From an uncultured Pelagibacteraceae bacterium (GTDB lineage Bacteria > Pseudomonadota > Alphaproteobacteria > Pelagibacterales > AG-422-B15), in the NCBI GenBank assembly GCA_902521655.1, contig CABYSM010000003.1, forward strand, positions 15,297 through 79,296: a stretch of 64,000 bases of DNA, given 5' to 3'. This document shows positions 2,716 through 33,831 of this stretch, in pieces. The position numbers were made by a program, and so were the translations under genes. How positions within the stretch are numbered: position 1 is the first letter of the stretch; each line of letters begins with the position of its first letter. Under the pieces are notes generated by a model. The model made no database searches. It worked only from the letters and a program-made list of their open reading frames with translations, and was not told the origin of the DNA.

Positions 2716-3335
2716 CTCTCTCACTTTATCCAGCTTTCTTTATTTTTGCATTAATAATGGTTACAACGCCTGGACCTGCCAATCTGCTATTAATGAGTTC
2801 TGGAGCCCAGCACGGATTATATAAATCATTACCTTTTGTTGCGGGCGTTACTTTCGGAAAACTTTTTTTAACCATTGGGCTTGGATTTGGATTTTTGTCT
2901 TTATTAAATTCTAACCCATTTATAATTAATTTAATTAAAATTGCTGGAACGGGTTACATTTGCTGGTTGTCATATAAGATTATGTTCCTAAACCTAAAGC
3001 CAACTTCTAAGACAGAATTAGAAAGTATACCCAACTTTTTTAATGGTCTTTTAGTGCATCCCCTCAATCCTAAAGGGTGGGCTATGGTGATCGCCGCCTA
3101 TACTCAATTCACTTCTTTTGGAAGTGCAAGCCTAACTTCAAACTGGGCACTTGAAGTTTTAATTATAGCTTCAACATTCTTTTTAATACAATCAGTTTCC
3201 CACTCAGTATGGTGCTGGGCAGGAAGTCTCATTTTTAATTTTTTGAATCAAAAAAATCTTTTGCGTCAATCTATAGTTATTATTTTAGCAGTGCTAACAG
3301 TAGGTACTGTTATTTATAGTAACTTTTTTATCTAA
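2712..3335 (+). CDS. LysE/RhtB-family amino-acid exporter
   Basis: 207 aa with 5-6 TM segments and N-terminal TPGPANLL, typical of the LysE family. It overlaps the pdxA stop by 4 nt. Confidence 0.7.
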   Translation: MTLSLYPAFFIFALIMVTTPGPANLLLMSSGAQHGLYKSLPFVAGVTFGKLFLTIGLGFGFLSLLNSNPFIINLIKIAGTGYICWLSYKIMFLNLKPTSKTELESIPNFFNGLLVHPLNPKGWAMVIAAYTQFTSFGSASLTSNWALEVLIIASTFFLIQSVSHSVWCWAGSLIFNFLNQKNLLRQSIVIILAVLTVGTVIYSNFFI

Positions 3336-4092
3336 TTTTTTTTAAACTATTTTTTTCCACTGACTCACTAAAGCTTGCAAATAACTTTTTGGAAAAATCA
3401 TCAGTAGTCGCAGAATATTCAGGATGCCACTGTACGCCAAAAAAATATCCACTATAACCAGACAAACTGATTGCCTCTACTGTCTCATCTTTAGCAACTC
3501 CTTCAGCAACTAATTCGTTTGCTAATTCGTCAATTCCTTGTGTATGTAATGAATTTACCTCGATCGTCGGAGTGCCTGCTAATTTTTCAAATTTACCATT
3601 TTCTTTAAAATACACTTCATGCTGTTTAGAAAATTGTATATCAGGATCATCAGACTCTGGGCATCGGTGATCCATTCTGCCTGGTACCTCATGAATATCT
3701 GCAAACAGTGAACCTCCCATGGCAACATTAACTTCTTGAAAACCTCTGCATATTGCAAGCATAGGTATCTCATTTTGAAATATAAAATCAATCATTGGCA
3801 GTACTGTCTTATCTCTGTCAATATCTAATGGTTCAACAATTTTATCTTTATTATAAAATTCTGGATAAACATTTGAAAGGCTTCCAGTTAACAAAACTCC
3901 ATCAAATTTACGAAGTGTGTCTCTATAATCTACACTTGATCCAAATGCAGGAAGTATAACCGGTATACAGCTGGTAGCTTCAGAAACAGCTTTAATATAA
4001 TTGGTTCCAGATGCGTGATAAGTTCGGTGCAACTCCTCTTTCTTAATTACATCTGCAAAAACTGCAATAAGTGGCTTATTTTGGGTGTCCAT
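3328..4092 (-). CDS. Class-I glutamine amidotransferase-like / peptidase C26 hydrolase (PuuD-like gamma-glutamyl-amide hydrolase)
   Basis: 254 aa with nucleophile elbow LAICRGFQ and GVQWHPE (Cys-His pair of C26/GATase-1). Confidence 0.75.
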   Translation of the reverse strand: MDTQNKPLIAVFADVIKKEELHRTYHASGTNYIKAVSEATSCIPVILPAFGSSVDYRDTLRKFDGVLLTGSLSNVYPEFYNKDKIVEPLDIDRDKTVLPMIDFIFQNEIPMLAICRGFQEVNVAMGGSLFADIHEVPGRMDHRCPESDDPDIQFSKQHEVYFKENGKFEKLAGTPTIEVNSLHTQGIDELANELVAEGVAKDETVEAISLSGYSGYFFGVQWHPEYSATTDDFSKKLFASFSESVEKNSLKKIR

Positions 4093-5351: not shown

Positions 5352-6719
5352 ATGGCATATCTAAATAGAACTACTAAACAATGGCAGGAGATTGATACCA
5401 AACATCACCTCCATCCTTTTACTGACTATAAGTCTCTTGCTGAAGAAGGTAGTATCATTGTAACAAAAGCAGACGGCGTTCATCTGACCACATCTGATGA
5501 TAAGCAGCTATTGGATGCAATGTCTGGGCTTTGGTGTGTTAATGTGGGCTATGGCCGAAAAAATCTTGCTGAAGTTGCCTACAAGCAAATGCAAGAGCTT
5601 CCATATTATAATTCTTTTTTTAAAACTGCTACGCCTCCATCAATCGAGCTAGCAAGAGAATTAGCAGAGTTAAGTCCCCATGATCTAAATCATGCATTCT
5701 TTTCATCAAGCGGTTCAGAAGCCAACGACACAGTTGTGAGAATGGTGAGGAGATATTGGGATCTTAAAGGTAAGCCAAACAAGAAAACTTTTATAAGTAG
5801 AGAGTTTGCATACCATGGCAGTACAATGACAGGTATGAGCCTTGGTGGGATGACTGCAATGCATTCACAAGGTGATATGATGCCAGGTTTTGAGCATGTT
5901 TTACCACCATATTGGTACAAATACGGAAACGAAATGTCCCAAGATGATTTTGGAATTTTTGCAGCAAACAAAATTGAAGAGAAGATTAATGAAATAGGCG
6001 CTGATAATGTGGCGGCATTTATTGGTGAGCCAATCCAAGGTGCAGGTGGTGTAATCATTCCTCCTGATTCATATTGGCCTAGGGTCCAAGAAATCTGCAA
6101 TCAGTATGATATCCTTCTTGTAGTTGATGAGGTTATCTGTGGCTTTGGAAGAACAGGAAACTGGTTTGGATCTGATACATATAATATCAAGCCCGATATA
6201 ATCACAATGGCTAAGGGTATAACATCAGGCTACATACCGCTATCAGGCATCATGATTGGTGATCGCGTTAGTGATACAATTATTAATGAAGGTGGTGAGT
6301 TTTATCATGGTTATACGTATTCAGGTCATCCAGTAGCTTGTGCAGTAAGTCTTGAGAATTTAAAAGTTATAAAAGAAGAAAATCTTATCGAGCAGTCAAG
6401 TCAGGTGTCTGTCTATTTAGAGCAGCAAATGCGTGAGATTGAAAAGCACCCGCTAGTTGGAGAAGTCAGAATGAAAAGTTTTATAGGAGCTGTAGAATTG
6501 GTTAAAGATAAAGAGAAGATGGAAATGTTTGAGGACACGGGTGTTGTTGGAACAATTTGCAGAGATTACTGTATTGAAAATGGTTTAGTGATGAGAGCTG
6601 TGAGGGATGGAATGATTTTTTGCCCACCGCTAATTTTTAATAATTCCCATGTAGACGAATTATGTGAAAAGCTTAAAAAATCTTTAGATCAAACACATAA
6701 TCATATTTCTAAATCGTAA
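5352..6719 (+). CDS. Class-III PLP aminotransferase (omega-amine:pyruvate / SpuC-like)
   Basis: 455 aa with AYHGSTMTGMSLGG, DEVICGFGRTGNWFG and PLP-lysine context ITMAKGITSGY. Confidence 0.8.
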   Translation: MAYLNRTTKQWQEIDTKHHLHPFTDYKSLAEEGSIIVTKADGVHLTTSDDKQLLDAMSGLWCVNVGYGRKNLAEVAYKQMQELPYYNSFFKTATPPSIELARELAELSPHDLNHAFFSSSGSEANDTVVRMVRRYWDLKGKPNKKTFISREFAYHGSTMTGMSLGGMTAMHSQGDMMPGFEHVLPPYWYKYGNEMSQDDFGIFAANKIEEKINEIGADNVAAFIGEPIQGAGGVIIPPDSYWPRVQEICNQYDILLVVDEVICGFGRTGNWFGSDTYNIKPDIITMAKGITSGYIPLSGIMIGDRVSDTIINEGGEFYHGYTYSGHPVACAVSLENLKVIKEENLIEQSSQVSVYLEQQMREIEKHPLVGEVRMKSFIGAVELVKDKEKMEMFEDTGVVGTICRDYCIENGLVMRAVRDGMIFCPPLIFNNSHVDELCEKLKKSLDQTHNHISKS

Positions 6720-7149: not shown

Positions 7150-8307
7150 CTAGTTTCTTATAGTTCGATAAATTGAAATCATTAAGAAAATAAAAGTAAA
7201 AAATACAATTGTATATATAAAACCAATAGGACCAAAAATATCCATAACTCTTCCCCCAATCAAAGGACCAATTAATGAACCGCACTCAAAAACCATCACC
7301 AATATTGCCGTTGCGCCCGCAACCTGTGAAGCAGTATATCTTTCTCCCAACATTGTAAGTGATATCGAGAATATTCCACTTGCTGCTCCTCCCCAAATAA
7401 AACAGCTCAATGCCACTAAATAGAAGTTTCCAAGAAAAACACCTATAATTATTGGACAAATAAAAGTACAGAAGACAGCAATATTCATAAGTAGTCTCTT
7501 ATTCATCCTATCAAGTAAAATACCAATTAGCGGCTGGCATATGACACCGCCAACTAACGTAATAGTGACAAACTGAAGAGCAATGTCTTGTGAAAACTGA
7601 TTCTTAATCATAAAGATTGGAAAAAATGACACGAACATAACATCGTCTAATCCACAGAGAATTGCAGCTCCAAAAATAGTTGGGGCAGCTATTATCGTCG
7701 CTAAAATCGGAAGAGACTTTTTCTCAGGCAATTCTTGATCTGCTATATTGAATGTTATGAGAGGAATAATTGCTATAAATGACATTGCTGCAATTACAAT
7801 AAATGGAAGCCATCCCTCAATCCCCGTTAAAGATATAACAAGAGGACCAATTGCAAAGCCAATAATAAATACGGTATTGTATATTGTTACAATTTTCCCC
7901 CTATTTGTATCATCTGCCATTGATAACATCCATGTATCAAAGGCATTCCATGCAAGTGCTCCTGCAAAACCGATAAGAAATCGTATAATAAACCATGCAG
8001 TTAAACTCTCAAATACGGGAAAGGTGAAATATAAAATAATTGTGACAATCTGAGCAATCACAATGGACCTAGACAATCCAATTGTGTGAATGATAATAGG
8101 AGTAATTCTAACAAATAAAATTACCGCCAACGGTTGGGCTACAACATTCAAACCGATCTGTGTATTGCTATAGCCTCTTGATTCAAGTATTAGAGATAAT
8201 AAGGGAATAAGTGTTCCTAGTTTTATGCCAATAATGAGTGCACATAAAAATAAAACAATATAAGTTTTATAGTTACTTCCAAGTATTGATTGAAAAGATG
8301 AAATCAC
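7150..8307 (-). CDS. MFS transporter
   Basis: 385 aa with about 12 TM segments. It overlaps the upstream TetR gene by 4 nt. Confidence 0.75.
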   Translation of the reverse strand: MISSFQSILGSNYKTYIVLFLCALIIGIKLGTLIPLLSLILESRGYSNTQIGLNVVAQPLAVILFVRITPIIIHTIGLSRSIVIAQIVTIILYFTFPVFESLTAWFIIRFLIGFAGALAWNAFDTWMLSMADDTNRGKIVTIYNTVFIIGFAIGPLVISLTGIEGWLPFIVIAAMSFIAIIPLITFNIADQELPEKKSLPILATIIAAPTIFGAAILCGLDDVMFVSFFPIFMIKNQFSQDIALQFVTITLVGGVICQPLIGILLDRMNKRLLMNIAVFCTFICPIIIGVFLGNFYLVALSCFIWGGAASGIFSISLTMLGERYTASQVAGATAILVMVFECGSLIGPLIGGRVMDIFGPIGFIYTIVFFTFIFLMISIYRTIRN

Positions 8308-8948
8308 ACAAACCGTTTTTCATCTGTATAAATATTTTTAAAGTATTTTTTTACTAGTCCTTTACAAAATACGTGTGAGTACATTTTAGGATCAAATAAA
8401 ATTCTTTGCCATAACCCATCTACCATTGAGAGATAAGTCTCACTTATTTCTTTTGGGGTAAGAAAAGATTGATTATTTAAAATATTTACTTCTTTAATTA
8501 ACTTTTCCATCTGAGATGAATATATTTCATCTTGTTTTTGACAGATTGATAAATAAGAAGGACGGAACTTTACTTCACTATAGAAAGATACCCAGACTGC
8601 AATTTTATTTCTATTTGCAATTTTACTACTGAAATCATTTTCGATTATCTTAATCACTCTACCAACAGGATCTAAGTTATTATCTTCAAATATTCGTTGC
8701 CAAGAATTTTTATATTCGTCTGACAGAAATTTTAGTGAACTTAGTAAAAGATTTTCTTTAGATTTAAATCTAAAATTTGCATAGCCTTGTGATACCATTG
8801 CTTTTTTAGCAACTTGTGCAATCGTAGTATCTCCAAGACCTCTTTTAGCTATAGTTTCAATTGTTGCATCAATCAGTTTTTGATGATTGATTGAGAATTC
8901 TTGATCTTCAAGTTGATGATCACTAATTTTTTTGGGACTTATATTCAT
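8304..8948 (-). CDS. TetR-family transcriptional regulator
   Basis: N-terminal HTH is IETIAKRGLGDTTIAQVAKKAMVSQGYANFRFKSKENLL. I prefer the ATG at 8948 (MNISPKK) over the GTG at 8963 used by the ORF track. It is the first gene of a TetR-MFS-GNAT string and is divergent from the 9044 operon. Confidence 0.8.
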   Translation of the reverse strand: MNISPKKISDHQLEDQEFSINHQKLIDATIETIAKRGLGDTTIAQVAKKAMVSQGYANFRFKSKENLLLSSLKFLSDEYKNSWQRIFEDNNLDPVGRVIKIIENDFSSKIANRNKIAVWVSFYSEVKFRPSYLSICQKQDEIYSSQMEKLIKEVNILNNQSFLTPKEISETYLSMVDGLWQRILFDPKMYSHVFCKGLVKKYFKNIYTDEKRFV

Positions 8949-8990
8949 AAAAGAACCATACACAAAGTTTAATCATATGGGTAGTTTTGT

Positions 8991-9008
8991 ATTGAATAAT
9001 CATTCAAT
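8991..9008. promoter_or_regulatory. Candidate operator: 7-N4-7 inverted repeat ATTGAAT-aatc-ATTCAAT
   Basis: Perfect 7-bp arms read directly from the sequence. It sits in the 95-nt divergent gap between the TetR gene and the 9044 operon. The half-site is shared with the palindrome at 13422-13439. Confidence 0.55.
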
Positions 9009-9043
9009 ATGAGTATCATAATAATTCAATATTCGTACATTTT

Positions 9044-10672
9044 ATGCCAAAAAATACTCATGATGTAATTGTTGTTGGAGCGGGCCATAACGGGCTTACT
9101 GCAGCTAGTTATATGGCTAAAGCAGGATTAGATGTCGTTGTCCTAGAAAAAAATGATTGGATTGGCGGCGCGGCAGTAAGTCGAGAGCTTTACCCAGGAT
9201 GGAAATATTCAAATTGTTCTTATGTATGTAGTTTATTAAGGCCAGAGATCATGCGGGACTTAGAGCTTTATAAGTATGGGCTACAAATTATCCCATACGA
9301 AGGCAGTGCCACGATGATGAAAAATGGAGATTATTACACTCATTACCATGATCATGACATGACTATAAATTCTATAAGGCGTCATTCTCATAAAGACGCA
9401 GAAGCATATGAAAGATACAGCCGAGACGTTCTTAGACAATGTAAAATTATTAAGCCTCTACTAAAAATGACACCGCCTGACTTAACATCATTTAAACCAA
9501 AAGATTTATTTGGTGCCCTCGAGTTTGCGAAACATTTTGCTGCAAAAGATGAACTAGATGGTCTTGGAGAAAAAGAGATTTATGAAACTATTCGTTTCTA
9601 TACGATGAGTATTAGAGATTACTTAGAGGAATATTTTGAAAGTGAAATAACTAAAGCCCATCTTGCTGGCAGTGCAATCATAGGCACAGCTTTGGGTCCA
9701 TGTTCGCCAGGATCAGCTTATGTGTTGCTGCACCATTATATGGGTGAAGTTGATGGATCAGTTGGCTCATGGGGCTATGCAAGAGGTGGCATGGGATCTA
9801 TTACTCAAGCAATGATGGGTTGTTTAAAAGACCATGGTGGTGAAGTAAAGCCTAGCAGCGAAGTAACTAACGTTATTACAAAAAATGGAAAAGCAATTGG
9901 GGTCGCAACACAAAATGGTGATGAATATTACGCAAAGAAAATTGTATCCAATCTTGATGTCAAACGAACATTTCTAAAGATTACTGAGGAGAAGGATCTT
10001 CCTGATGATTTTGTGAGAAGCGTGAAAAATTTCAAGATAAGGGGGTCATCTGGTAAATTAAATATTGCATTAGATGCATTACCAGATTTTCCATGCATAC
10101 CTGAAGGCGATCCAGGGGGTGGTGGAGACATGCACTTCACAGAAACAATTGAAGAGATGGAAGGCGCTTATGACGATTGGAAAAGGGGAGAATGGTCACG
10201 AAATCCTTATGTAGATATGTGTATTCCATCCAAAAGTGATCCGACAATGGCTGAGCCTGGTAAGCATTATATGTCTGTATTTATTCAGTATGTACCATTC
10301 AACCTCGCAAATGGCGGATGGAATGAAGAGAGAAAGCAAGAGTTTGGAAGACATATTGTTGATTGTATTTCAGAGTTTTCACCTAACTTTAAAGACTTAA
10401 TTAATCATTATGAGGTTCGTACACCACTAGAATTGGAAAACGAGGTTGGTCTGACAGAGGGTAATATTTTTCAAGGAGAGTTGACCATGGACCAATTAAT
10501 GTTCAATAGGCCAGTCCCAGGATATGCACAGTATCGGACTCCATTAAAAAATATGTATATATGCAGTTCTTCAACACATCCAGGCGGAGGTGTAATGGGT
10601 GCCCCAGGAGCTAACGCTGCTCGTGAAGTTTTACTAGACATGAACGTTCCACAAAAAGGAAATTATTATTAA
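9044..10672 (+). CDS. NAD(P)/FAD-dependent oxidoreductase, amine-oxidase / CrtI (phytoene desaturase) fold
   Basis: 542 aa with N-terminal dinucleotide fold VIVVGAGHNGLTAASYMAKAGLDVVVLEK and C-terminal HPGGGVMGAPG. Confidence 0.7.
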   Translation: MPKNTHDVIVVGAGHNGLTAASYMAKAGLDVVVLEKNDWIGGAAVSRELYPGWKYSNCSYVCSLLRPEIMRDLELYKYGLQIIPYEGSATMMKNGDYYTHYHDHDMTINSIRRHSHKDAEAYERYSRDVLRQCKIIKPLLKMTPPDLTSFKPKDLFGALEFAKHFAAKDELDGLGEKEIYETIRFYTMSIRDYLEEYFESEITKAHLAGSAIIGTALGPCSPGSAYVLLHHYMGEVDGSVGSWGYARGGMGSITQAMMGCLKDHGGEVKPSSEVTNVITKNGKAIGVATQNGDEYYAKKIVSNLDVKRTFLKITEEKDLPDDFVRSVKNFKIRGSSGKLNIALDALPDFPCIPEGDPGGGGDMHFTETIEEMEGAYDDWKRGEWSRNPYVDMCIPSKSDPTMAEPGKHYMSVFIQYVPFNLANGGWNEERKQEFGRHIVDCISEFSPNFKDLINHYEVRTPLELENEVGLTEGNIFQGELTMDQLMFNRPVPGYAQYRTPLKNMYICSSSTHPGGGVMGAPGANAAREVLLDMNVPQKGNYY

Positions 10673-12189
10673 TGTCTGACAATTCGAATTTTGATGCCAT
10701 CATAATCGGTGGAGGTCATAATGGATTGGTATGCGCAAATATCCTTGCTAGAAAAAATAAAAGAGTACTAATTTGTGAAGCACGAAAAGAGTGTGGTGGC
10801 ATGGTCAACAATGAAATCACAAACTATGTTCCTCCAGTAACAACAGCTGTTTCAAGTTCGTTAGGAGGTATGCAAGTAAATTATTTGCCAAAGACTACAA
10901 TCGCTTTATCTGAAACTGGGCAGCACATCCGACTAGTTGGCAATCAACACATTGACCATAAATCTATCTCAACATTTTCATCGCACGATGCTGACCGTTT
11001 TAATGATTTTCATGAGAAAATGTCAAAATTCTCAAAAACTCTGGGCTCCTTCATGATGGCATCACCTCCACGTATTATGAACAACAGCTTTTCTGACTAT
11101 TTTAAGCTCTTCAAGCTTGGATTAAATGTTAGGCTACTAGGAAAGAAAAATTTCAATGAGTTTGCCAGGATGATTGGTCTAAATATAGCTGATGAACTCG
11201 AAGATAATTTTGAAAATACATTACTTCAAGGGTTGATTGCACATGACTCAGTCATAGGGTCAAATTTAGGCCCACGTTCACCAGGCTCTCTCATAAACTT
11301 ATTATATAGAATGGCTATCCACAATAATTCATTATTTGGTGGCATATTTCAGATAGAGGGAGGCAACGATCAATTCACTAAACATCTAATTGAAAAATGT
11401 AAAAGCAATAATGTAGAAATAAAGACCTCAGCGTCTGTTAAAAATTGTATTGTTGAAGATGACTGTGCTGTAGGCGTTGAACTAATTAATGGTGAAAAGG
11501 TGTATGCTAAGAAAATTATTTCTAATGTAGATCCACGTTCAACATACTTTTCATTACTTGGCTCTCAAAACCTTGATACTGACGTAAAAAGGAAAATTAA
11601 GCATCATCGCTCCAAAGGACGAGTTGCTAAACTTATTTTAGATTTAAACAAGTTACCTAGTTTTAACAATTGTGATGATATTGATCTTGATAGCAGAATG
11701 GTTGTTGCTCCATCTATTGATTACATTGAAGAAACATTTAACCCTAGTAAGTTTGACAAGCTTTCACTAGAGCCAACACTTGAAATTTGTGTAAAGAAAG
11801 ACTCTGATCAAAATCCAAAATTAGACATTCAAGTTCAATATGCACCATATAAAACTGATCAAGGGTGGGAAAATGTAAAAGAAAATTATATTGAATCTAT
11901 AATCAAAATCATTAGTAAATATGCTCCCAATATTAATGAATGCATCGAGCATAAGAAATTAATAACCCCTGACGATATTGAATTAGAATATAATGTATCA
12001 GGTGGACACTGGCATCACGGCGAGATCCAAATTGATCAGCTTTTTATGATGCGCCCAATTCCAGGAGCCTCACAGTATAAAACGCATTTGGATGGTCTTT
12101 TTATGTGTGGCGCAGGAACACATCCAGGTGGTGGCTTAACCGGTATTTCAGGCAAAAATGCAGCCAAAGCAGTTTTGGACGATTTTTAA
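10672..12189 (+). CDS. NAD(P)/FAD-dependent oxidoreductase, amine-oxidase / CrtI fold (paralogue of 9044)
   Basis: 505 aa with IIIGGGHNGLVCANILA and C-terminal HPGGGLTGISG. Its start overlaps the upstream stop (TAATG at 10670-10674). Confidence 0.7.
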   Translation: MSDNSNFDAIIIGGGHNGLVCANILARKNKRVLICEARKECGGMVNNEITNYVPPVTTAVSSSLGGMQVNYLPKTTIALSETGQHIRLVGNQHIDHKSISTFSSHDADRFNDFHEKMSKFSKTLGSFMMASPPRIMNNSFSDYFKLFKLGLNVRLLGKKNFNEFARMIGLNIADELEDNFENTLLQGLIAHDSVIGSNLGPRSPGSLINLLYRMAIHNNSLFGGIFQIEGGNDQFTKHLIEKCKSNNVEIKTSASVKNCIVEDDCAVGVELINGEKVYAKKIISNVDPRSTYFSLLGSQNLDTDVKRKIKHHRSKGRVAKLILDLNKLPSFNNCDDIDLDSRMVVAPSIDYIEETFNPSKFDKLSLEPTLEICVKKDSDQNPKLDIQVQYAPYKTDQGWENVKENYIESIIKIISKYAPNINECIEHKKLITPDDIELEYNVSGGHWHHGEIQIDQLFMMRPIPGASQYKTHLDGLFMCGAGTHPGGGLTGISGKNAAKAVLDDF

Positions 12190-13389
12190 ATGACACAAGA
12201 TCTTAGATATTCAGCCTTAAAGAAGACACCTTTTCATTCCAGAACCAGTATGGCTTCTCGAACTAACAAATATTATAATTGGAATGGCTACACTGTACCC
12301 ACTGAATATTCAACAACCGAGCTAGAATATACAGCAGCAAGAAATGGTACATCAGTTATGGATCTTACCCCTATGGGCAAATATGAAATTACGGGTGATC
12401 ATGCGCATAGATTTGTTGATTACTTAGTTACCCGAGACCTATCAGAAATGAAGGACAATACAGTAGCTTACATCATCTGGTGCAATGAAGATGGAAAAGT
12501 GATTGACGATGGTACTATTTTTAAATTTTCTTCAACAAAATTTATGCTGTGCTGTGCTGTTAAAATATATAACTGGCTTAACGACTCAGCTTATGGCTTT
12601 GATGTTTCAATAAGCGATGTAACAGACACTATTGCAGCATTAGCAATTCAAGGGCCAACATCGTGCTCGACTTTAAAAAAATTTGGAGCAACTGATCTTG
12701 AAAAACTAAAACCTTTTGAAATGAGAGAATATAAAATTGATGGCTTTAATATTTTAATTTCACGCACAGGATTCACTGGTGATTTGGGTTACGAATTGTG
12801 GACTGATCCAAAAAATGCAGAAACTACATGGGACAATATTGAGATTGCTGGCAAGGAGCTAAAATTAAGACCTTTTGGAATGCATGCTCTCGAAATGACA
12901 AGAATTGAAGCTGGGTTTATTCAAACCAATACAGACTTTATGGCCGCAGAAGACTCATTAAGACCAACCAGAATGAGGTCACCTTATGAAATTGGAATGG
13001 GATGGCTCGTGCACTTAAACAAGAACTCATACTTCGTTGGAAAGAAAGCTCTTAAAAAAGAAAAAGAAGAAAACACTACTGAGAGATGTTTAGTAGGTTT
13101 GGATATAGATGGAGATAAGCCAGCACATGGTTCTGTGATCTATAACAGCAAAAAAGAAGACATTGGCATTGTAACTGCAGCTCTATGGTCTCCTATTATG
13201 AAAAAAAACATTGCACTGGCTTCACTCAAGAGACCTTACGGAATAAAAATAAAAGAAAATATATTTGCAGAAATTTATCACCCTGAAGAACTTGAGTACC
13301 GTAAGATATGGGCAAGATGCAAGGTAGTGAAAAGGCAATTTTTTAACCCTGAAAGAAGAAATAAAGTTCCTGCAGATCTATATGAATAG
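12190..13389 (+). CDS. GcvT-family aminomethyltransferase-like (folate-binding T-protein fold)
   Basis: 399 aa with typical T-protein stretches: TPFHSRT, AARNGTSVMDLTPMGKYEITG, ALAIQGP, ISRTGFTGDLGYELW and LRPFGMHALEMTRIEAG. Its ATG follows the upstream TAA directly. Confidence 0.75.
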   Translation: MTQDLRYSALKKTPFHSRTSMASRTNKYYNWNGYTVPTEYSTTELEYTAARNGTSVMDLTPMGKYEITGDHAHRFVDYLVTRDLSEMKDNTVAYIIWCNEDGKVIDDGTIFKFSSTKFMLCCAVKIYNWLNDSAYGFDVSISDVTDTIAALAIQGPTSCSTLKKFGATDLEKLKPFEMREYKIDGFNILISRTGFTGDLGYELWTDPKNAETTWDNIEIAGKELKLRPFGMHALEMTRIEAGFIQTNTDFMAAEDSLRPTRMRSPYEIGMGWLVHLNKNSYFVGKKALKKEKEENTTERCLVGLDIDGDKPAHGSVIYNSKKEDIGIVTAALWSPIMKKNIALASLKRPYGIKIKENIFAEIYHPEELEYRKIWARCKVVKRQFFNPERRNKVPADLYE

Positions 13390-13413: not shown

Positions 13414-13451
13414 ATTCAATTATTGAACAGCTGTTCAATTTAAGCTATAAT
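13414..13451 (+). promoter_or_regulatory. Candidate operator plus promoter: ATTCAAT-t-ATTGAACAGCTGTTCAAT overlapping TTGAAC-N17-TATAAT
   Basis: There is an 18-bp perfect palindrome at 13422-13439 and an extra half-site at 13414-13420. The -35-like TTGAAC is at 13423-13428 and the -10 TATAAT at 13446-13451. The ATG of the next gene is at 13457. Confidence 0.5.
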
Positions 13452-13456
13452 GATTC

Positions 13457-14860
13457 ATGCCTAAATCCACATCCCAGCCTCCTATAAAAGATTTAAAGAA
13501 TACCCTAGATGATCGAATTCTTCATCCATGGCAATACTTAGAATACAGAGGTGAAGATGATCGGACATTTATTGATAAGTCTGAGGGGATTTACCTTTAT
13601 GACAAAACAGGAAAAAAACTAATTGATGGACCTGGAGGCATGTGGAATGTCAATGTTGGTCATGGTGTTAAAGAAATTGCGGATGCAGTTTACAATCAAA
13701 TTACTAAAATGCCTTACGCAAGTCCGTTTACTGAATCAACAGAAATAGCTCACAATTATGCATCAAGACTTGTTCAATATGCACCTGGTGATTTAAAAAG
13801 GATTTTTTTTACTTCTGGTGGATCGTCTGCTGTGGACTCAGCATTACGATTTGTAATGTTCTATAATAATATTCTAGGCCGAAAAGAAAAAAAACAAATC
13901 ATATCAAGAAATGATGCTTACCACGGTAGCACATTTTTAGGAGCTTCTTGCTCAGGCAAAGAAAGAGATAAAAATAATTTTGATTTCGCAAGTAATATTG
14001 TTCACCATATTTCATCTCCTAATCCTTTTCGTAAACCTGATGATCTTACTGATGAAGAATTCTGTGATCTAAAGGTTCAAGAATTAGAAAACAAAATAAT
14101 TGAAATTGGCGCTGACAAGGTTGCTGCTTTTATAGCTGAGCCTATTTTAGCTTCAGGTGGTGTGATTGTCCCACCAAAAGGTTATCATAAGAAGACACAC
14201 GAAATTTGTAAGAGACATGATGTACTGTACATTTCAGACGAAATCGTTACTGGTTTTGGAAGACTTGGCCACATTTTTGCTTCAGAAAATTATTTTGATT
14301 TCACACCGGATATTATACTTCTCGCTAAGGGGATCACATCTGGATATGTGCCTTGCGGAGCTGTTGTTATATCAGAGCGATTGATGTCCAAATTAGATAA
14401 TAAAGAGAAAGTAATTTTTTCAAACGGTTTCACAGACTCAGGGCATCCTGTTAGCATGGCCGCCGCAACTGCAACTCTGGACTACATTGAAAAAACTCAC
14501 TTACTTGATCACGTAAAAGATGTTGGCCCTTATTTTCAAGCAAAATTGAGAGAGCTCACTGATTTACCAATTGTTGGTGAAGTTAGAGGTGAAGGTCTTA
14601 TGGCCGCAGTAGAATGTGTGGGTAATAAGGATAAAAAAGATCCACTGAATTTATCTTACGAGATTGGTTCTAGGATTAATGAGCATTGCCAGCAATTAGG
14701 TTTAATCGTACGACCATTATTTAGTACATGCGTCATGTCACCGTCATTAATTATCACGAAGGAACAAGTTGATGACCTTGTTTCTATTTTGCGTAAAGGC
14801 ATAGAGTTAGCAACAGATGATATCAAAAAAGAAGGTCTCTGGTCAGCAACTTCAAATTAA
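13457..14860 (+). CDS. Class-III PLP aminotransferase
   Basis: 467 aa with DAYHGSTFLGASCSG, DEIVTGFGRLGHIFAS and ILLAKGITSGYVPCG. Confidence 0.8.
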   Translation: MPKSTSQPPIKDLKNTLDDRILHPWQYLEYRGEDDRTFIDKSEGIYLYDKTGKKLIDGPGGMWNVNVGHGVKEIADAVYNQITKMPYASPFTESTEIAHNYASRLVQYAPGDLKRIFFTSGGSSAVDSALRFVMFYNNILGRKEKKQIISRNDAYHGSTFLGASCSGKERDKNNFDFASNIVHHISSPNPFRKPDDLTDEEFCDLKVQELENKIIEIGADKVAAFIAEPILASGGVIVPPKGYHKKTHEICKRHDVLYISDEIVTGFGRLGHIFASENYFDFTPDIILLAKGITSGYVPCGAVVISERLMSKLDNKEKVIFSNGFTDSGHPVSMAAATATLDYIEKTHLLDHVKDVGPYFQAKLRELTDLPIVGEVRGEGLMAAVECVGNKDKKDPLNLSYEIGSRINEHCQQLGLIVRPLFSTCVMSPSLIITKEQVDDLVSILRKGIELATDDIKKEGLWSATSN

Positions 14861-16098
14861 TGACCTTTTTTAATCAACTTAAAGAAAGATATGAAGAAGG
14901 AAAGACTCTTCCGCAAGAGTTTTATACTGACGAAGAAATATTTTCTGATGAAATGAAAAAAATTTATTTCAAGCAGTGGCTGATGGTTGATCATGTTAGC
15001 CGTATTCCAAATCCTGGAGATTATTTTTTATTTAATGCAGAAAAAGAGTCAATAATCCTAATACGTGGAAGGGATAGTCAAGTTAGAGCTTTTTACAACG
15101 TTTGTTCTCATCGTGGTTCAAGAATATGTTTGGAAGAAGAAGGAACAAAAAAACTGTTAGTTTGTCCATATCATGCTTGGAGTTTCTCCGCAGAAGGCGA
15201 GTTAAAGTCAGCACGCTACATGCCAGATGATTTTAAAATGGAAGATTGGGGTTTAAAGCCTTGTCATATGAATATCTATCAAGGCTTGATATTCATAAAT
15301 CTCTCAATGGATGAACCAATGGATTTCAATGAGTTTATTGCCCCATTGACTGAGCTTGTAAATTTTCATAATCCTGAAAAGGCAAAGATTGCTGCTAGAC
15401 GAAAATATCCTACGAAAGCTAATTTCAAACTTGTCCTAGAAAATTTCCAAGAATGCTATCACTGTGGTCCAGCACATCCAGAGCTATGCTCAGTACATGA
15501 AAAAGACTGGGTATACACAATGGGTGCCGGTGTTGGAACGGCCCCAGAAAAAGAAACACAAGAATATTTAAAAAAGATTCAACCATGGATTGAGGATTGC
15601 AAAACAAAAGGAATCCCCTCAAAAACATATTTAGAAACTGAAGAAGGATTAAGTAAGGGATTAAATCGATACGTAGACCGTACACCCATCGGTAATGGAA
15701 ATTTATCACAAACTAAAGATGGCAAACCAGCCTCTAAACTAATGGGTCAGTTTAAAGAATTTGATGGTGGTTTATCCCAAGTAAGTTTTAATCCTTTTAG
15801 CTGTTGTTACTTTACAAATGATTTTGGAGTTATGTTTATATTTAAACCATTATCAATTTTTCAGTCTGAAGTTGAATTGATTTGGTTAGTCAATGAGGAA
15901 GCTGAAGAAGGCAAAGATTTTAATGAAGAAAACCTTACTCACATATGGGACGTAACCACTGCACATGACACAACCATTATTGAAAATAATCAAAATGGTT
16001 TGTTGTCTCATTCATTTAGTCCTGGAGTACTCTCACAGAACGAGTCTGCCGTTACGTATTTTTATGATTGGTATTTTACCAATATGAGACTACCATGA
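14860..16098 (+). CDS. Rieske [2Fe-2S] non-haem-iron oxygenase, alpha-type subunit (GbcA/Stc2/CntA-like class)
   Basis: 412 aa. Rieske ligands are C82-S-H84 ... C102-P-Y-H105 (CSHRGSRIC...CPYHAWSF). The mononuclear-Fe motif is ENFQECYHCGPAH (H201-x4-H206). Its start overlaps the upstream stop (TAATG). Confidence 0.8.
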   Translation: MTFFNQLKERYEEGKTLPQEFYTDEEIFSDEMKKIYFKQWLMVDHVSRIPNPGDYFLFNAEKESIILIRGRDSQVRAFYNVCSHRGSRICLEEEGTKKLLVCPYHAWSFSAEGELKSARYMPDDFKMEDWGLKPCHMNIYQGLIFINLSMDEPMDFNEFIAPLTELVNFHNPEKAKIAARRKYPTKANFKLVLENFQECYHCGPAHPELCSVHEKDWVYTMGAGVGTAPEKETQEYLKKIQPWIEDCKTKGIPSKTYLETEEGLSKGLNRYVDRTPIGNGNLSQTKDGKPASKLMGQFKEFDGGLSQVSFNPFSCCYFTNDFGVMFIFKPLSIFQSEVELIWLVNEEAEEGKDFNEENLTHIWDVTTAHDTTIIENNQNGLLSHSFSPGVLSQNESAVTYFYDWYFTNMRLP

Positions 16099-16115: not shown

Positions 16116-17471
16116 ATGAAACAGCTGTACAACAAGGATATTTACGACGTTAATAAACCAGTAGAAAGTTATTGGGAAGAGGTCAGCAGCATTGACCAAA
16201 ATAAGTATCCAGAATTAGTTGGAGATCAATCATGTGATGTATGTGTCATTGGAGGCGGTTTTACAGGCATTAGTACGGCTTATCATATTGCAAAAAATTA
16301 TGGTGGAGATGTAAGAGTGTTAGAATCTGGGCACTATGGTTTTGCAAGTAGTGCAAGGAATGCGGGTTTTTGCTGTCTACCAGCTACAAAGTTATCTACC
16401 ACACAATTAATAAAAAAGTTCGGTATGGAAGAGACTAAGAAATTTTTTTCATCTCAAATTGAAGGCGTTGATCTTCTTGCATCTATTATTTCAGAAAATA
16501 ATATTGATTGTGAAAAAGTAGGTGATGGCAACCTTGATGTAGCTCACCATCCAGGAAGCAGTGAAGAATTAAAAGAATGGGGAAATGAATTGAAAGAGTA
16601 TTTTGGTATTAATACAAAATGGATACCTAAAGAAGAATTTGATGAAGTTGGACATCAATCAACTGAACAATTTGGGGCAGTATTTACAGAGGCTGGATTT
16701 GCAATGAATCCCATGGCGTTTATGCGAGGCTTTGCATCAGCAACTGTAGATGCAGGTGCAAAATTACATAGTTTTTCAAGAGTAAAAAAATGGGAGAGAA
16801 ATGGGTCACATAAGCTAATAACAGATGGTGGATCAATTACTGCAAATAAAGTTGTAGTAGCAACAAATGGTTACACTGATGAGTCGCTCCATCCAAGTTT
16901 TGCTAATCGAATGATGCCAGTCCTATCAAATATTATTGTTACCAGAGAAATGAGTGATGATGAATTTAAGTTGCAAAACTACAAAACTTTAAATCCCATA
17001 TGTAATTCTAGAGAAATTTTATATTATTACAGAAGAATGCCTTCTAACAGAATGTTGTTTGGCACAAGAGGTGATACTTATGGTGATGATGCAAGTGCAC
17101 TAAAAATGAGAGAATTTATGACTCAAAAATTTAGAGGCGTTTTTCCTCATTGGAATAATATTGATATTGATCACTACTGGAGAGGTACAGTTGTTATGAC
17201 CAGAGATTTTGTACCTGCATTTGGCGCATTGGATGACGACAAGTCAGTCTTATTTTCATATGGCTATCAGGCAAATGGTAACAATACTACAGTTTATTGT
17301 GGAAAGAAGCTGGCTGAAATGATTTACGAGTCAAATAGTGGAGAAACGAATATATCAAAAGTCTATCAAGGACTCTCTCCAAAAATACCATTAGGTTTTT
17401 TAAGATTATGGTATTTAAGACTATATCTATGGTATTCAAACTTTACAGATAAAAGTAAAAAAGAAATATAA
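16116..17471 (+). CDS. FAD-dependent oxidoreductase, DAO family (PuuB-like gamma-glutamyl-amine oxidase type)
   Basis: 451 aa with the dinucleotide fold DVCVIGGGFTGISTAYHIAK. Length and layout fit PuuB/DadA-type flavoproteins. Confidence 0.65.
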   Translation: MKQLYNKDIYDVNKPVESYWEEVSSIDQNKYPELVGDQSCDVCVIGGGFTGISTAYHIAKNYGGDVRVLESGHYGFASSARNAGFCCLPATKLSTTQLIKKFGMEETKKFFSSQIEGVDLLASIISENNIDCEKVGDGNLDVAHHPGSSEELKEWGNELKEYFGINTKWIPKEEFDEVGHQSTEQFGAVFTEAGFAMNPMAFMRGFASATVDAGAKLHSFSRVKKWERNGSHKLITDGGSITANKVVVATNGYTDESLHPSFANRMMPVLSNIIVTREMSDDEFKLQNYKTLNPICNSREILYYYRRMPSNRMLFGTRGDTYGDDASALKMREFMTQKFRGVFPHWNNIDIDHYWRGTVVMTRDFVPAFGALDDDKSVLFSYGYQANGNNTTVYCGKKLAEMIYESNSGETNISKVYQGLSPKIPLGFLRLWYLRLYLWYSNFTDKSKKEI

Positions 17472-17507: not shown

Positions 17508-18392
17508 ATGTTACAAGTTTGGAAGTCTTTTTATGCAAGGAGTGATCCTGCAAAAGCTTATTCACTTCTTTCTCCTGCATTGATTCTAGTTACTTTAGCT
17601 ATGCTTATACCTTTAGGGCTAATGTTGAGTTTTAGCTTTTTCACTCAAGTTAGCTTTACTGAAATTGACTACTCTTTCACCATTCAAAGATATATTGATT
17701 TTTTTCAAAAGAACTTGCTTGTCTCTTTACTTATAAAATCAGTGAAGATTTCGTTTATCGTAACTTTCGTAACTCTCCTTACTGCATATCCTGTCTGTTA
17801 TTACATAGCTTTTTATGTAAAGAAAAATAAAATGTTATGGCTTGTTTTACTGACATTACCTTTCTGGACATCTTATCTTTTAAGGGTTTTTTCCTGGAAA
17901 ATTATACTTGGAACTAAGGGAGTTATTAATTCTTCTTTAATTAATGCAGGACTGCTTAGCGAACCTCTCACTTTTCTAATGTATTCTGAGACTGCAGTTA
18001 TCATAACGCTTACCCATGCATGGGCAGCATTTGCTTTATTACCTTTGTACGTATCATTGGATAAAATAGATTTTTCTCTAATTGAAGCCGCCAGAGACTT
18101 AGGATTGTCAAGATTAGAAACTTTTTGGAAAATTACACTTCCTTTATCTCTTCCTGGAATCATTGGTGCCATACTAATTATCTTTATTCCAACAGTAGGA
18201 GATTATGTTACTCCTGCTTTACTTGGAGGAACTGATGGGAGAATGCTATCAAATATGATCCAAGCTTACTTTGGAAAAGTAAACAATCTTCCTCTTGGTG
18301 CTGCGTCTGCAACCATTATGCTCATTACTGTTGCGATAGTGACAATGATCGTTTCATATACAACAAAAAAACTTACTCAAAGGATTTCTTAA
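17508..18392 (+). CDS. ABC transporter permease, PotB-like
   Basis: 294 aa with 6 TM segments and the EAA-loop region IEAARDLGLSRLETFWKITLP. Confidence 0.8.
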   Translation: MLQVWKSFYARSDPAKAYSLLSPALILVTLAMLIPLGLMLSFSFFTQVSFTEIDYSFTIQRYIDFFQKNLLVSLLIKSVKISFIVTFVTLLTAYPVCYYIAFYVKKNKMLWLVLLTLPFWTSYLLRVFSWKIILGTKGVINSSLINAGLLSEPLTFLMYSETAVIITLTHAWAAFALLPLYVSLDKIDFSLIEAARDLGLSRLETFWKITLPLSLPGIIGAILIIFIPTVGDYVTPALLGGTDGRMLSNMIQAYFGKVNNLPLGAASATIMLITVAIVTMIVSYTTKKLTQRIS

Positions 18393-19208
18393 GTGGAACA
18401 AAAGAACAATACATTGTTAATCTACACATTATTGTATTTTGCATTTTTATATATCCCTGTTTTATTCTTGCCAATATTTAGCTTTAATGATGCAAATTAT
18501 ATGTCATTTCCACTTTCAGGATTTACAACAGAGCATTATGAAGAAATGTGGGCAAAAACAAATTTACATAAAGCTCTTTGGGCTAGTATCAAAGTAGGTA
18601 TAGTTGCAAGTGTTGTCAGTACAACAATTGCACTTTTCGCAGCCAAAGCATTTGCACGTTATAAATTCAGAGGGCAAAATATTTCTTACGGGGCCATTAT
18701 GATTCCTTTTTTAATTCCAGAAATTATTTTAGCGGTTGCAATACTTGTTATTTGGTTAAGCCTTGGTTTTAAATTAGGACTTGTACCGGTAACTTTAGGA
18801 CATATTCTTTTTTGTACTCCATTTGCAATGCTTATTTTAATTGCTCGTATAGAAGGCTTTGATTTCTCACTAGAGGAAGCATCAAGAGACCTTGGGGAAA
18901 ATGCCTGGGGGACATTTTATCGAGTATCTCTTCCATTATATCTACCAGGTATAATTGCCTCACTTTTATTGAGTTTTATAATTTCATTTGATGAATTTGT
19001 TCTTGCGTTCTTCTTAACTGGAAGCGATGCAACATTGCCCATGTATATGTGGGCTCAAATGAGATTTATTCAGAAACTACCGCATGTGTTGGCTTTAGGT
19101 GCGGTTATAATTGTGTTTACTACTTTTATAGTTTTGTTAGCATTCTGGTTGAGAAACCTTGGTCAAGGAAAAGAGAAAGCTGAATTTGGAATAAAAATAC
19201 ATGAATAA
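18393..19208 (+). CDS. ABC transporter permease, PotC-like
   Basis: 271 aa with a GTG start directly after the upstream TAA. The EAA loop is EEASRDLGENAWGTFYRVSLP. Confidence 0.8.
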   Translation: MEQKNNTLLIYTLLYFAFLYIPVLFLPIFSFNDANYMSFPLSGFTTEHYEEMWAKTNLHKALWASIKVGIVASVVSTTIALFAAKAFARYKFRGQNISYGAIMIPFLIPEIILAVAILVIWLSLGFKLGLVPVTLGHILFCTPFAMLILIARIEGFDFSLEEASRDLGENAWGTFYRVSLPLYLPGIIASLLLSFIISFDEFVLAFFLTGSDATLPMYMWAQMRFIQKLPHVLALGAVIIVFTTFIVLLAFWLRNLGQGKEKAEFGIKIHE

Positions 19209-20283
19209 TTCTTTCATACAGATAAACGGAATTTCAAAGCATTTTGGAAATGTTAAAGCGGTAGATGATGTCTCTTTTCAAATCAAAGAGGGAGAGTTTT
19301 TCTCTCTACTCGGCCCATCGGGTTGTGGTAAAACAACTTTACTGAGATTGCTTGCCGGCTTTGAGTACCCAACTAGTGGCAACCTATTACTTGATGGCAG
19401 TGATATTACAGCATTACCTCCTGATAAAAGACCTACAAATATGGTTTTTCAGAATTATGCAATTTTCCCACATATCAATGTTGAAAAAAATGTTCAGTTT
19501 GGTTTGAGAAAACTTGGCTTAACAAACGATGAAATTATCAAAAGAGTTAAGGATGTTTTGTCGTTGGTTAAATTAGAAGGTTATGAGGAACGCTATAGCA
19601 GCCAACTATCCGGGGGTCAAAGACAAAGAGTGGCATTAGCGAGAGCTTTAGTAAGGCAGCCTAAAGTATTATTGCTGGATGAGCCACTTGGAGCATTAGA
19701 TAAAAAGTTACGTGATGAAATGCAACTCGAACTAAGAACTCTTCAAAAAGAGATTGGAATAACTTTTGTATTCGTTACACATGATCAGCAAGAAGCCATC
19801 AGTATGTCTGATCGAGTTGCGGTGATGAGTGAAGGCAAAATTCAGCAGATGTCATCTCCAAATGAGTTATATAAAAACCCTCAAAATATTTTCGTGAGTG
19901 ACTTTATTGGTGAAACTAATTTTTTAAAAGCTAATACAGGGTCAAAGGATGGAGAATATATTAATGTTAACATTGAAGATCTTGGTTCGTTCAAAATAAA
20001 GAATAATCTCAATATAAGTGAAAATGCCTCAGAAGTTATTTGCAGTGTTCGTCCAGAGACTATGATGATAGACACAGAAAAATCAGACTGGGATATTTGC
20101 TTAGAAGGTAAAATTAAGCAAACATCATATTTGGGTGAAATGACAAAATTTTATGTTGAAACAAAAGAAATAGAAAAAATTATAACTGTATCATCACAAT
20201 ATTTTGATAATCAGTCTTTCCAAGATAGCAAATGCTTTATCAGCATAAACTTAGCTGATATTTCCTTACTAAATAAAAAATAG
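19201..20283 (+). CDS. ABC transporter ATP-binding protein, PotA-like
   Basis: 360 aa with Walker A GPSGCGKTT, signature LSGGQRQRVALARAL and Walker B LLLDEPLGALD, plus a C-terminal regulatory/TOBE-like extension. Confidence 0.85.
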   Translation: MNNSFIQINGISKHFGNVKAVDDVSFQIKEGEFFSLLGPSGCGKTTLLRLLAGFEYPTSGNLLLDGSDITALPPDKRPTNMVFQNYAIFPHINVEKNVQFGLRKLGLTNDEIIKRVKDVLSLVKLEGYEERYSSQLSGGQRQRVALARALVRQPKVLLLDEPLGALDKKLRDEMQLELRTLQKEIGITFVFVTHDQQEAISMSDRVAVMSEGKIQQMSSPNELYKNPQNIFVSDFIGETNFLKANTGSKDGEYINVNIEDLGSFKIKNNLNISENASEVICSVRPETMMIDTEKSDWDICLEGKIKQTSYLGEMTKFYVETKEIEKIITVSSQYFDNQSFQDSKCFISINLADISLLNKK

Positions 20284-33235: not shown

Positions 33236-33244
33236 GATCATATT

Positions 33245-33826
33245 ATGACACTTGAAATCAGGAAGATGTGTAAGTTTGTTGATACAACATATGTTGAAGA
33301 TTTTAAAAAATGTGATGAACCTGTAGTTTTAGTATCTGTCGCAGCAGTAATTACAAACCCATGGGTTGACCAAGGGTATGTAGAAGACCTGAAGCCTACA
33401 ATTTTAGAGATAGCCCCAAAGCTTGGTGATTTTTTAGTTGGTGAGCTATTAGATGAAATTGGTTCTCCAGAAAAAGTCTTAGCCTACGGTAAGGCGAGTA
33501 TGACAGGGATGCGTGGAAGCATACAACATGCAAGCGCACTGATTCATACGTTACATTTTGGCAATAAATTTCGAGATGCTGTTGGAGGAACATCCTATCT
33601 TTCATTTACCAATGTACGTGGACTTGCAGCTTCAAAAATATCAATCCCTATGATGCACAAAACAGATCCTGGTTTGAGACAATTTTATTTAACTCATGAG
33701 TTTACAATTCATGATGCTCCTGGTCCTGCTGAATTAGTTATAGCAATTGGCGCAAGTACTACTCCTCAAGCTCATCATCGTATCGGAAACCGTTATGAAG
33801 ATGAAAAGGAAATGGGACTGAAATAA
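33245..33826 (+). CDS. 'Amino acid synthesis' family protein (DUF1185/PF06684-like), function unknown
   Basis: 193 aa. The stretches AAVITNPW, YVEDLKP, HASALIHTLHFGN.FRDAVGG.SYL.FTN and IPMMHK match my recollection of this family. No profile search was run. Confidence 0.55.
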   Translation: MTLEIRKMCKFVDTTYVEDFKKCDEPVVLVSVAAVITNPWVDQGYVEDLKPTILEIAPKLGDFLVGELLDEIGSPEKVLAYGKASMTGMRGSIQHASALIHTLHFGNKFRDAVGGTSYLSFTNVRGLAASKISIPMMHKTDPGLRQFYLTHEFTIHDAPGPAELVIAIGASTTPQAHHRIGNRYEDEKEMGLK

Positions 33827-33831
33827 TATTC

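Follow-up and report, generated by a model that had tools for sequence, protein, structure and literature searches.

In dimethylglycine dehydrogenase/oxidase and sarcosine dehydrogenase, a flavin adenine dinucleotide (FAD) module oxidizes an N-methyl group and a GcvT-family domain captures the carbon as methylene-tetrahydrofolate (methylene-THF). Such folate-linked N-demethylation is central to energy and nitrogen gain from methylated amines in SAR11 and in many soil and marine bacteria. Here we describe a set of three adjacent genes in a 64,000-nucleotide stretch of contig CABYSM010000003.1 from an uncultured Pelagibacteraceae (SAR11) bacterium, the whole of which is hereafter the window. The genes encode two paralogous flavoproteins, designated FP1 and FP2, and a stand-alone GcvT-family protein, designated the T-like protein. 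The trio is real, widespread and uncharacterized, and we propose, with a probability of about 0.55, that it forms a THF-linked module for the oxidative N-demethylation of a methylated amine that the cell imports. This reading fits the reliance of SAR11 on folate-linked oxidation of methyl groups (PMC3160333).

The chemistry proposed for the trio is that of the dimethylglycine and sarcosine enzymes, whose folate domains match the T-like protein at about 80–95 bits. Their flavin module, however, has the DAO fold and is fused into one chain, whereas the trio combines a flavoprotein pair of the CrtI/PYROXD2 fold with a separate T-like protein. The multi-subunit N-demethylases SoxABDG and MgdABCD also have a T-protein-like folate site in their alpha subunit, and the soxA model matches the T-like protein at 152 bits; they differ in their DAO-type beta subunit, in the fused Rossmann and T domains of SoxA and in their small delta and gamma subunits, none of which occurs in the trio. 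Tdm, in which DUF1989 is fused to a GcvT domain, provides the best NCBIfam match of the T-like protein, but it is a fused, non-flavin enzyme whose N-terminal catalytic half the T-like protein lacks. The nearest precedent for a split architecture is DmmDABC, in which DmmABC is not known to be a flavoprotein pair of the CrtI/PYROXD2 type. DmmD is a stand-alone GcvT-domain protein that is encoded with dimethylamine monooxygenase, has a proposed role in one-carbon (C1)–THF conjugation and is dispensable for catalysis in Escherichia coli (PMC5520151). Its likeness to the T-like protein is one of architecture, and SAR11 reportedly lacks dmmDABC. The original prediction did not recognize the arrangement as described. 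For the trio as a whole this agrees with our literature search, which found no description of it (subscription-only papers lay outside the coverage), but the stand-alone T-like partner has its precedent in DmmD. A split T-protein architecture thus has a forerunner, and the novelty lies in the pair of PYROXD2/CrtI-fold flavoproteins in that role.

The trio consists of the following genes:
9044-10672, forward strand: FP1, a PYROXD2-type FAD-binding flavoprotein of the CrtI fold, the proposed catalytic amine-oxidizing subunit (open reading frame (ORF) call, ATG start, 542 amino acids (aa))
10672-12189, forward strand: FP2, a diverged paralog of FP1, the proposed second subunit or second-step oxidase (ORF call, ATG start, 505 aa)
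12190-13389, forward strand: the T-like protein, a stand-alone GcvT-family protein and the proposed THF-dependent C1 acceptor (ORF call, ATG start, 399 aa)

In the raw sequence, the FP1 stop and the FP2 start have one base in common (TAATG at 10670-10674), and the TAA that ends FP2 at 12187-12189 is followed directly by the ATG of the T-like gene at 12190. FP1 and FP2 align end to end with 29% identity (pairwise alignment, E = 6e-69, 218 bits), and both have an N-terminal dinucleotide-binding GxGHNGL motif and a C-terminal THPGGG motif. The original prediction had described these junctions, together with the GxGxxG and HPGGG motifs, correctly. It had also given the third protein T-protein motifs and no flavin domain, in agreement with the Pfam assignment of GCV_T (200.9 bits) and GCV_T_C (38 bits) and of no flavin domain.

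A scan of one genome per species with two FP1-specific peptides, in which 598 of the 600 stretches listed were confirmed, places an FP1 homolog in at least 598 species. Our analysis of loci covers the best 80 by identity (58–100%), including L001, the Pelagibacteraceae single-cell genome AG-333-C14, which is 100% identical; 70 have enough flanking sequence, and contig ends truncate the remaining 10. The FP1–FP2–T order and strand are kept in 70 of the 70 evaluable species loci, which span Alpha-, Beta- and Gammaproteobacteria, and FP2 always lies immediately downstream of FP1. Linkage in other genomes, on which the original prediction had made its proposal depend, is thus complete in this sample. 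Carriers include SAR11, Rhizobiales (Mesorhizobium, Rhizobium and Shinella), Rhodobacterales and Kiloniella, as well as Steroidobacteraceae, Woeseiaceae, Halieaceae, Porticoccaceae, Burkholderiaceae and Comamonas. The downstream start codon lies at −4, −8 or −14 from the upstream stop at 53 of 78 FP1/FP2 junctions, at −4 at 32 of 70 FP2/T junctions and within −14 to +7 bases in most loci; the start nearest to the stop was chosen in each case, which biases these distances downward. The arrangement is far beyond chance. It is present under generic names, ‘phytoene dehydrogenase-like protein’ and ‘aminomethyltransferase’ in the protein collection, and ‘NAD(P)/FAD-dependent oxidoreductase’ and ‘aminomethyltransferase family protein’ on RefSeq plasmids of Rhizobium, Shinella and Parasedimentitalea. 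Carriers that can be cultured include Parasedimentitalea marina W43 pW43C (EBB79_RS23545-23555), Rhizobium sp. SL42 (IM739_RS21775-21785) and Shinella zoogloeoides. Only four aminomethyltransferase paralogs are described in HTCC1062, none of them mentioned with such flavoproteins (PMC3160333), so the trio is probably outside the subgroup Ia core genome.

Judged by its profile matches, the T-like protein is a member of the GcvT superfamily, with its folate-binding aminomethyltransferase fold, and is not a known stand-alone enzyme. Its match to Tdm covers the C-terminal folate half (positions 376–722 of 763) and scores 274.1 bits against a cut-off of 1100. The scores also fall below the curated cut-offs for GcvT (TIGR00528, 169.2 against 235.85; PRK00389, 235.6 against 300; PRK13579, 118.2 against 459), for DmdA (136.6 against 410, with 94.9 bits to the P. 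ubique DmdA structure 3tfh) and for LigM (74 against 580). The original prediction had noted that the protein might turn out to be a DmdA-type or other known enzyme, a possibility that the missed DmdA, GcvT and Tdm cut-offs argue against. Almost the entire protein can be aligned with T. maritima GcvT (1woo) and with Tdm (9q59, 166 bits), and its IDDG and SRTG.TG..G.E motifs, which we take to be the folate-binding/catalytic motifs, line up with the same positions in both structures. GcvH and GcvP domains were found neither in the annotated ORFs of the window nor among the conserved neighbours.

Both flavoproteins pass the threshold of 19.8 bits for Pfam Amino_oxidase (PF01593; FP1 55.3 bits, FP2 35.6 bits). 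CrtI belongs to PF01593 too, so membership is no proof of amine chemistry. The best NCBIfam matches of both are carotenoid models (CrtO, CrtI and CrtD), all far under cut-off: CrtO (NF045689) scores 285.7 for FP1 and 169.6 for FP2 against 1000, and crtI_fam (TIGR02734) scores 93.9 and 84.6 against 238.1. In the PDB, CrtI (4dgk) and the carotenoid desaturase 4rep stand closest to FP1 by sequence, and the match to MAO-type oxidases is confined to the first 40–80 residues, the N-terminal Rossmann region. An AlphaFold 2 model of FP1 built from a diverse alignment (predicted local distance difference test (pLDDT) 86.4; a shallow alignment gave 62.6) was compared with solved structures by Foldseek. 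Its best match is 4rep (E = 3e-24, template modelling (TM) score 0.73/0.81), followed by 4dgk (E = 1e-20) and then by NicA2, MAO-A/B and putrescine oxidase at TM 0.52–0.61. The model thus places FP1 in the CrtI-like structural superfamily. The original prediction had named an amine-oxidase/CrtI fold; both proteins pass the Amino_oxidase threshold, and by the FP1 model CrtI is the nearer of the two. FP1 has the fold and PF01593 in common with the CrtI and CrtD desaturases, but identity is 18% and there is no carotenoid gene context. It has the superfamily fold in common with MAO, putrescine oxidase and NicA2, although its substrate domain is closer to that of CrtI; these enzymes show that the fold is capable of oxidizing C–N bonds, and NicA2 hands its electrons to cytochrome c, not to O2.

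The FAD motif of FP2 is intact, and where FP1 has LLHH and GNIF, FP2 shows invariant motifs of its own, GGHWHH and LLYR. FP2 is therefore a constrained, enzyme-like protein and not a decayed copy. Mean pairwise identity among orthologs is 67% for FP1, 47% for FP2 and 52% for the T-like protein, FP1 evolving slowest.

FP1 is also kin to mammalian PYROXD2, a link that is new here, went unnoticed in the original prediction and is the most interesting part of our analysis. A human PYROXD2 sequence served as bait only; the database returned proteins named PYROXD2 by NCBI/UniRef, at 98% identity, and P0272, a gibbon protein named PYROXD2 by NCBI, was used for comparison. FP1 aligns with P0272 nearly end to end, with 37% identity (373 bits, E = 2e-127); FP2 reaches 26% and 188 bits. 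FP1 can therefore be assigned by sequence to the PYROXD2 family, being related to PYROXD2 over its full length and closer to it than to its own paralog FP2 or to other CrtI-like clades. There are 71 positions conserved in FP1 and PYROXD2 and not in FP2, including LLHH (228–231) and GNIF (473–476), and the LLHH, GNIF and HPGGG motifs are common to FP1 and mammalian PYROXD2. In a neighbour-joining tree, all FP1 proteins fall into one clade that is sister to a PYROXD2 clade of four mammalian PYROXD2 proteins and three metagenomic representatives, and the FP2 clade stands apart; the 162 family members in the tree were picked by similarity to FP2, a biased sample, and the tree has no bootstrap and does not resolve strict FP1–PYROXD2 orthology.

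PYROXD2 resides in mitochondria and has been described as little known in function (PMC8777681), and our literature search found no PYROXD2 enzymology within the coverage given above. Variants at the human locus are linked to urinary trimethylamine (TMA) and plasma dimethylamine (DMA); higher PYROXD2 expression goes with lower urinary TMA, and a low-expression haplotype with higher TMA and DMA (PMC3169529). This pattern fits the expectation for an enzyme that consumes N-methyl amines. The strongest and most reproducible associations of PYROXD2 variants are with N6-methyllysine and N6,N6-dimethyllysine (PMC9730628, PMC13352909). Mammalian PYROXD2 differs from FP1 in that no FP2-like or T-like partner surfaced in the literature; animal genomes were not searched for one.

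The regulatory region of the trio contains the following features:
8304-8963, reverse strand: divergent BetI-like TetR-family repressor, the presumed regulator of the trio (Pfam TetR_N and TetR_C_6, a BetI-type C-terminal domain)
8991-9008, no strand: operator-like perfect palindrome ATTGAATAATCATTCAAT, between the TetR gene and FP1, overlapping the −35 hexamer of a promoter-like site at 8992-9019
13422-13439, no strand: second operator-like palindrome ATTGAACAGCTGTTCAAT, overlapping the −35 hexamer of a promoter-like site at 13423-13451 (TTGAAC-17-TATAAT)

The repressor is not BetI itself, as the best NCBIfam BetI models score 95.1 against 201.3 and 94.4 against 118. The second palindrome lies within the 67-bp gap after the T-like gene, before the aminotransferase, Rieske, DAO and PotBCA genes listed below. 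The perfect ATTGAA-N6-TTCAAT sequence occurs in two copies in the 64 kb, against 0.06 expected; both copies were found by pattern search and were missed by a generic inverted-repeat finder. A TTGAA-N6-TTCAA box is found upstream of FP1 in 15 other loci and between the divergent aminotransferase and PotB genes in 16 other loci, and box-bearing loci range from SAR11 to Mesorhizobium, Rhizobium and Shinella. With this predicted operator box in common, the trio, the class-III omega-aminotransferase and the Pot-type importer look like one regulon, inside which the trio looks like a transcription unit of its own.

A side observation concerns regulators of this type. At L014 (3998-5644, forward strand) and at 14 other Steroidobacteraceae/gammaproteobacterial loci, an N-terminal BetI-like TetR DNA-binding domain is fused to a Rieske/GbcA-like oxygenase domain. 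These fusion proteins have about 550–570 aa, and the joining of a repressor to an oxygenase-type ligand domain is unusual.

Downstream of the trio, the window encodes the following:
13457-14860, forward strand: class-III omega-amine:pyruvate-type aminotransferase (Pfam Aminotran_3; PRK07036, 651.5, above the cut-off of 618)
14860-16098, forward strand: Rieske non-haem iron oxygenase of the Stc2/GbcA type (Pfam Rieske and Ring_hydroxyl_A)
16116-17471, forward strand: DAO-family FAD oxidoreductase of the PuuB/sarcosine-oxidase-beta/pipecolate-oxidase type (Pfam DAO, 176 bits)
17508-20283, forward strand: PotB/PotC/PotA-like ABC importer, two permeases and an ATPase (NCBIfam PotB, PotC and PotA best; potA subfamily 375.2, above 355.6)
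20335-21423, reverse strand: solute-binding protein of the importer (Pfam SBP_bac_8)

The aminotransferase has 3i5t as its best PDB match, followed by putrescine, gamma-aminobutyric acid and polyamine transaminases. The Rieske protein scores below the GbcA cut-off (307.4 against 670) and has full-length PDB matches to 3n0q, 3vca and 4qup at about 245 bits. On the strength of these matches, and taking 3vca, a ring-hydroxylating dioxygenase, to be the stachydrine demethylase Stc2, we group it with the betaine N-demethylases. For the DAO protein, the best NCBIfam match is AmaA (156 against a cut-off of 600), and matches to glycine oxidase in the PDB are weak. The solute-binding protein shows a weak match to PotF (46.5 bits against 636), and its family is very small: 5.8 billion proteins yielded 20 clusters at E ≤ 1e-30, of which two have about 1000 members each. 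It appears to be a specialized marine protein. The abundant SAR11 ‘PotD’ (SAR11_1336) binds glycine betaine and dimethylsulfoniopropionate (PMC11485210). We considered equating the solute-binding protein in the window with SAR11_1336 and found no support, there being no solved structure and the small family holding no named member from a cultured strain; the ligand was therefore not transferred.

Unbiased clustering of flanking proteins shows which of these genes recur around the trio elsewhere. Homologs of PotA are found at 50 loci, the Rieske oxygenase at 43 of 76, PotB/C at 41, an adjacent TetR gene at 38, the aminotransferase at 28 and solute-binding proteins at 27 and 25. Fewer loci have aldehyde dehydrogenase, acyl-CoA-dehydrogenase-like or glutamine-synthetase-like genes, and some have DgcA/TMADH-like, FMO-like, carnitine-dehydrogenase-like or sulfatase genes.

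Several further observations touch these neighbours. A 364-aa protein (23040-24134, forward strand) resembles a ring-hydroxylating oxygenase alpha subunit reduced to its C-terminal catalytic domain (GbcA positions 153–417) and has no Rieske domain; another Rieske-less oxygenase paralog occurs at L085 (8698-11142), and on the plasmid of Parasedimentitalea two similar ‘SRPBCC family proteins’ adjoin the trio and the TetR gene. The window has two paralogous class-III omega-aminotransferases, at 5352-6719 and 13457-14860 on the forward strand, within 9 kb of a streamlined SAR11 genome; the former (PRK07480, 736.9, above 510) comes after an acyl-CoA dehydrogenase. Near the trio are also a PuuD-like gamma-glutamyl hydrolase gene (3328-4092, reverse strand) and amidase and glutamine-synthetase-like genes (21491-22987, reverse strand, and 24149-25519, forward strand). 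Together with the DAO protein at 16116-17471, these resemble a gamma-glutamylation amine pathway of the Puu/Pau type. Glutamine-synthetase-like genes directly follow the trio in several Halieaceae and Porticoccaceae loci.

In the mechanism that we propose, a secondary or tertiary amine would be imported and the FAD of FP1 would oxidize one of its N-methyl groups to an iminium; FP2 would be either a partner subunit or an oxidase that acts on the methyl group that follows. The T-like protein would trap the carbon on THF as 5,10-methylene-THF, so that no free formaldehyde would be released, and the demethylated primary amine would pass to deamination by the co-regulated omega-aminotransferase. 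In loci that have the Stc2/GbcA-type Rieske oxygenase, this enzyme probably acts on a quaternary, betaine-type precursor and takes off its first methyl group. Judged by its context, the trio would act on an N-methylated omega-amino compound or on a derivative of a betaine; N6-methylated lysines, demethylation products of gamma-butyrobetaine or beta-alanine-betaine, and methylated taurines or diamines are candidates and not findings.

We favour an N-demethylase because of the invariant order of the trio, its overlapping or abutting start and stop codons and the GcvT/Tdm motifs kept in the T-like protein; because the operator is common to the trio, the omega-aminotransferase and the importer; and because of the frequent Rieske neighbours and the kinship of FP1 with PYROXD2. 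The flavin amine dehydrogenases/oxidases that come next among the structural neighbours of the FP1 model, the DgcA-like, FMO-like, carnitine-dehydrogenase-like and sulfatase neighbours in some loci, and the precedent of DmmD add to these reasons. The original prediction had raised a folate-linked demethylase as one possibility, and the regulon, the Rieske neighbours and the PYROXD2 kinship add support to it. Our data show the structure of the genes, the folds, the kept synteny, the common operator and the kinship with PYROXD2; the chemistry and the stable complex, together with the substrate class and the electron acceptor, are what we infer.

Several points weigh against an N-demethylase. The support from PYROXD2 is one of genetic association, and we know of no CrtI-family enzyme that oxidizes amines. 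The importer and the aminotransferase are of the polyamine type, polyamines have no methyl groups, and no electron-transfer partner gene is encoded nearby. Natural fusions were sought in a full HMMER scan of FP2 against 1.84 billion representatives, which gave 8406 matches. The best 150, for which lengths were examined, all have 284–591 aa and show no fusion to FP1 or a T domain, which leaves a complex of FP1, FP2 and the T-like protein without Rosetta-stone support. A metagenomic protein of 904 aa, P0099, was considered as an FP1–FP2 fusion and rejected, as its junction is out of frame (…SSSHPRRRGDGCTGIQCC…), indicating a frameshift or an assembly artefact.

Other explanations assign the three proteins to different chemistry. 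The T-like protein could, like DmdA or LigM, work on its own and transfer a methyl group to THF non-oxidatively, the donor being a sulfonium or quaternary ammonium osmolyte, with the flavoproteins carrying out an unrelated redox step on the product. Stand-alone methyltransferases of the GcvT family exist, the DmdA and LigM/DesA models do match the T-like protein, and the BetI-like regulator and nearby relatives of Rieske betaine demethylases make an osmolyte substrate plausible. We consider this unlikely, because the matches to DmdA (136.6 against 410) and LigM (74 against 580) score far under those to GcvT and Tdm. The strict FP1–FP2–T order in 70 of 70 loci and the start/stop overlaps also point to one functional unit, and the PYROXD2 associations with N-methyl amines fit an oxidative flavin step. 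The conserved neighbours, all of which handle amines, also bear on whether the flavoproteins might perform a CrtI/RetSat-type C–C desaturation, saturation or isomerization of a non-amine substrate, with the T-like protein serving a separate demethylation in the same pathway. That the nearest solved structures are the carotenoid desaturases 4rep (TM 0.73–0.81) and 4dgk, and the best NCBIfam models CrtO, CrtI and CrtD, is what such an enzyme would lead one to expect; with carotenoid models far under cut-off (285.7 against 1000 and 93.9 against 238.1) and no carotenoid or isoprenoid genes in any neighbourhood examined, we regard it as quite unlikely.

The Pot-type importer, an aminotransferase akin to putrescine and polyamine transaminases, and the glutamine-synthetase-like, DAO and PuuD-like genes within the window would all suit an FP1–FP2 polyamine oxidase/dehydrogenase that cleaves spermidine- or norspermidine-like compounds and passes the products to the aminotransferase, the T-like protein having some role other than C1 capture. 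SAR11 does metabolize spermidine, by a cleaving enzyme that is not known (PMC8437039). Such cleavage yields no C1 unit, however, and so leaves the invariable coupling to a T-protein-like gene unexplained; the same difficulty attends the polyamine-oxidase alternative in the original prediction, in which the T-protein has no chemical role. The solute-binding protein matches PotF weakly (46.5 against 636 bits), the regulator is BetI-like and relatives of Rieske betaine demethylases are frequent neighbours, and we find a polyamine-cleaving enzyme very unlikely. Both this and the carotenoid-type explanation were rejected as primary explanations on the grounds given.

If the THF-linked N-demethylase reading holds, a widespread enzyme type, with an FP1 homolog in at least 598 species, now stands under generic annotation. 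The substrate could be approached directly by experiment in three ways, through the operator box, through the TetR regulator and through the dedicated solute-binding protein. The bacterial operon is in addition an independent, testable context for human PYROXD2, which has no assigned reaction, is mutated in a severe infantile metabolic disorder, bears the mark of recent positive selection and ranks with the strongest loci in genome-wide association studies of metabolites (methyl-lysines, TMA and DMA). A bolder form of the proposal, which we hold only tentatively and think doubtful as a whole, is that the trio is a heterotrimeric THF-coupled N-demethylating dehydrogenase built on a PYROXD2-type subunit and that human PYROXD2 demethylates free N6-methylated lysines along with related tertiary and secondary methylamines. 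The epsilon-alkyllysinase activity that was described for rat kidney in 1963–64 (PMC3936616) would then have a candidate enzyme in PYROXD2. For SAR11 and other marine bacteria this bolder form would mean an unrecognized route from methylated amines to C1 oxidation by way of folate, and it might have a bearing on the dimethylamine step that is reported as missing (PMC5520151).

Elsewhere in the window, a compact cluster on the forward strand at 30363-36079 encodes a luciferase-like monooxygenase, a thiamine-pyrophosphate-dependent enzyme, an AA_synth protein (PF06684), an alpha/beta hydrolase and an aldehyde dehydrogenase. A QueG-like ORF with a TTG start (60361-61578, forward strand) overlaps the gene for the glutamate synthase large subunit (55946-60466, forward strand) by about 100 bases, and its true start is probably further downstream.

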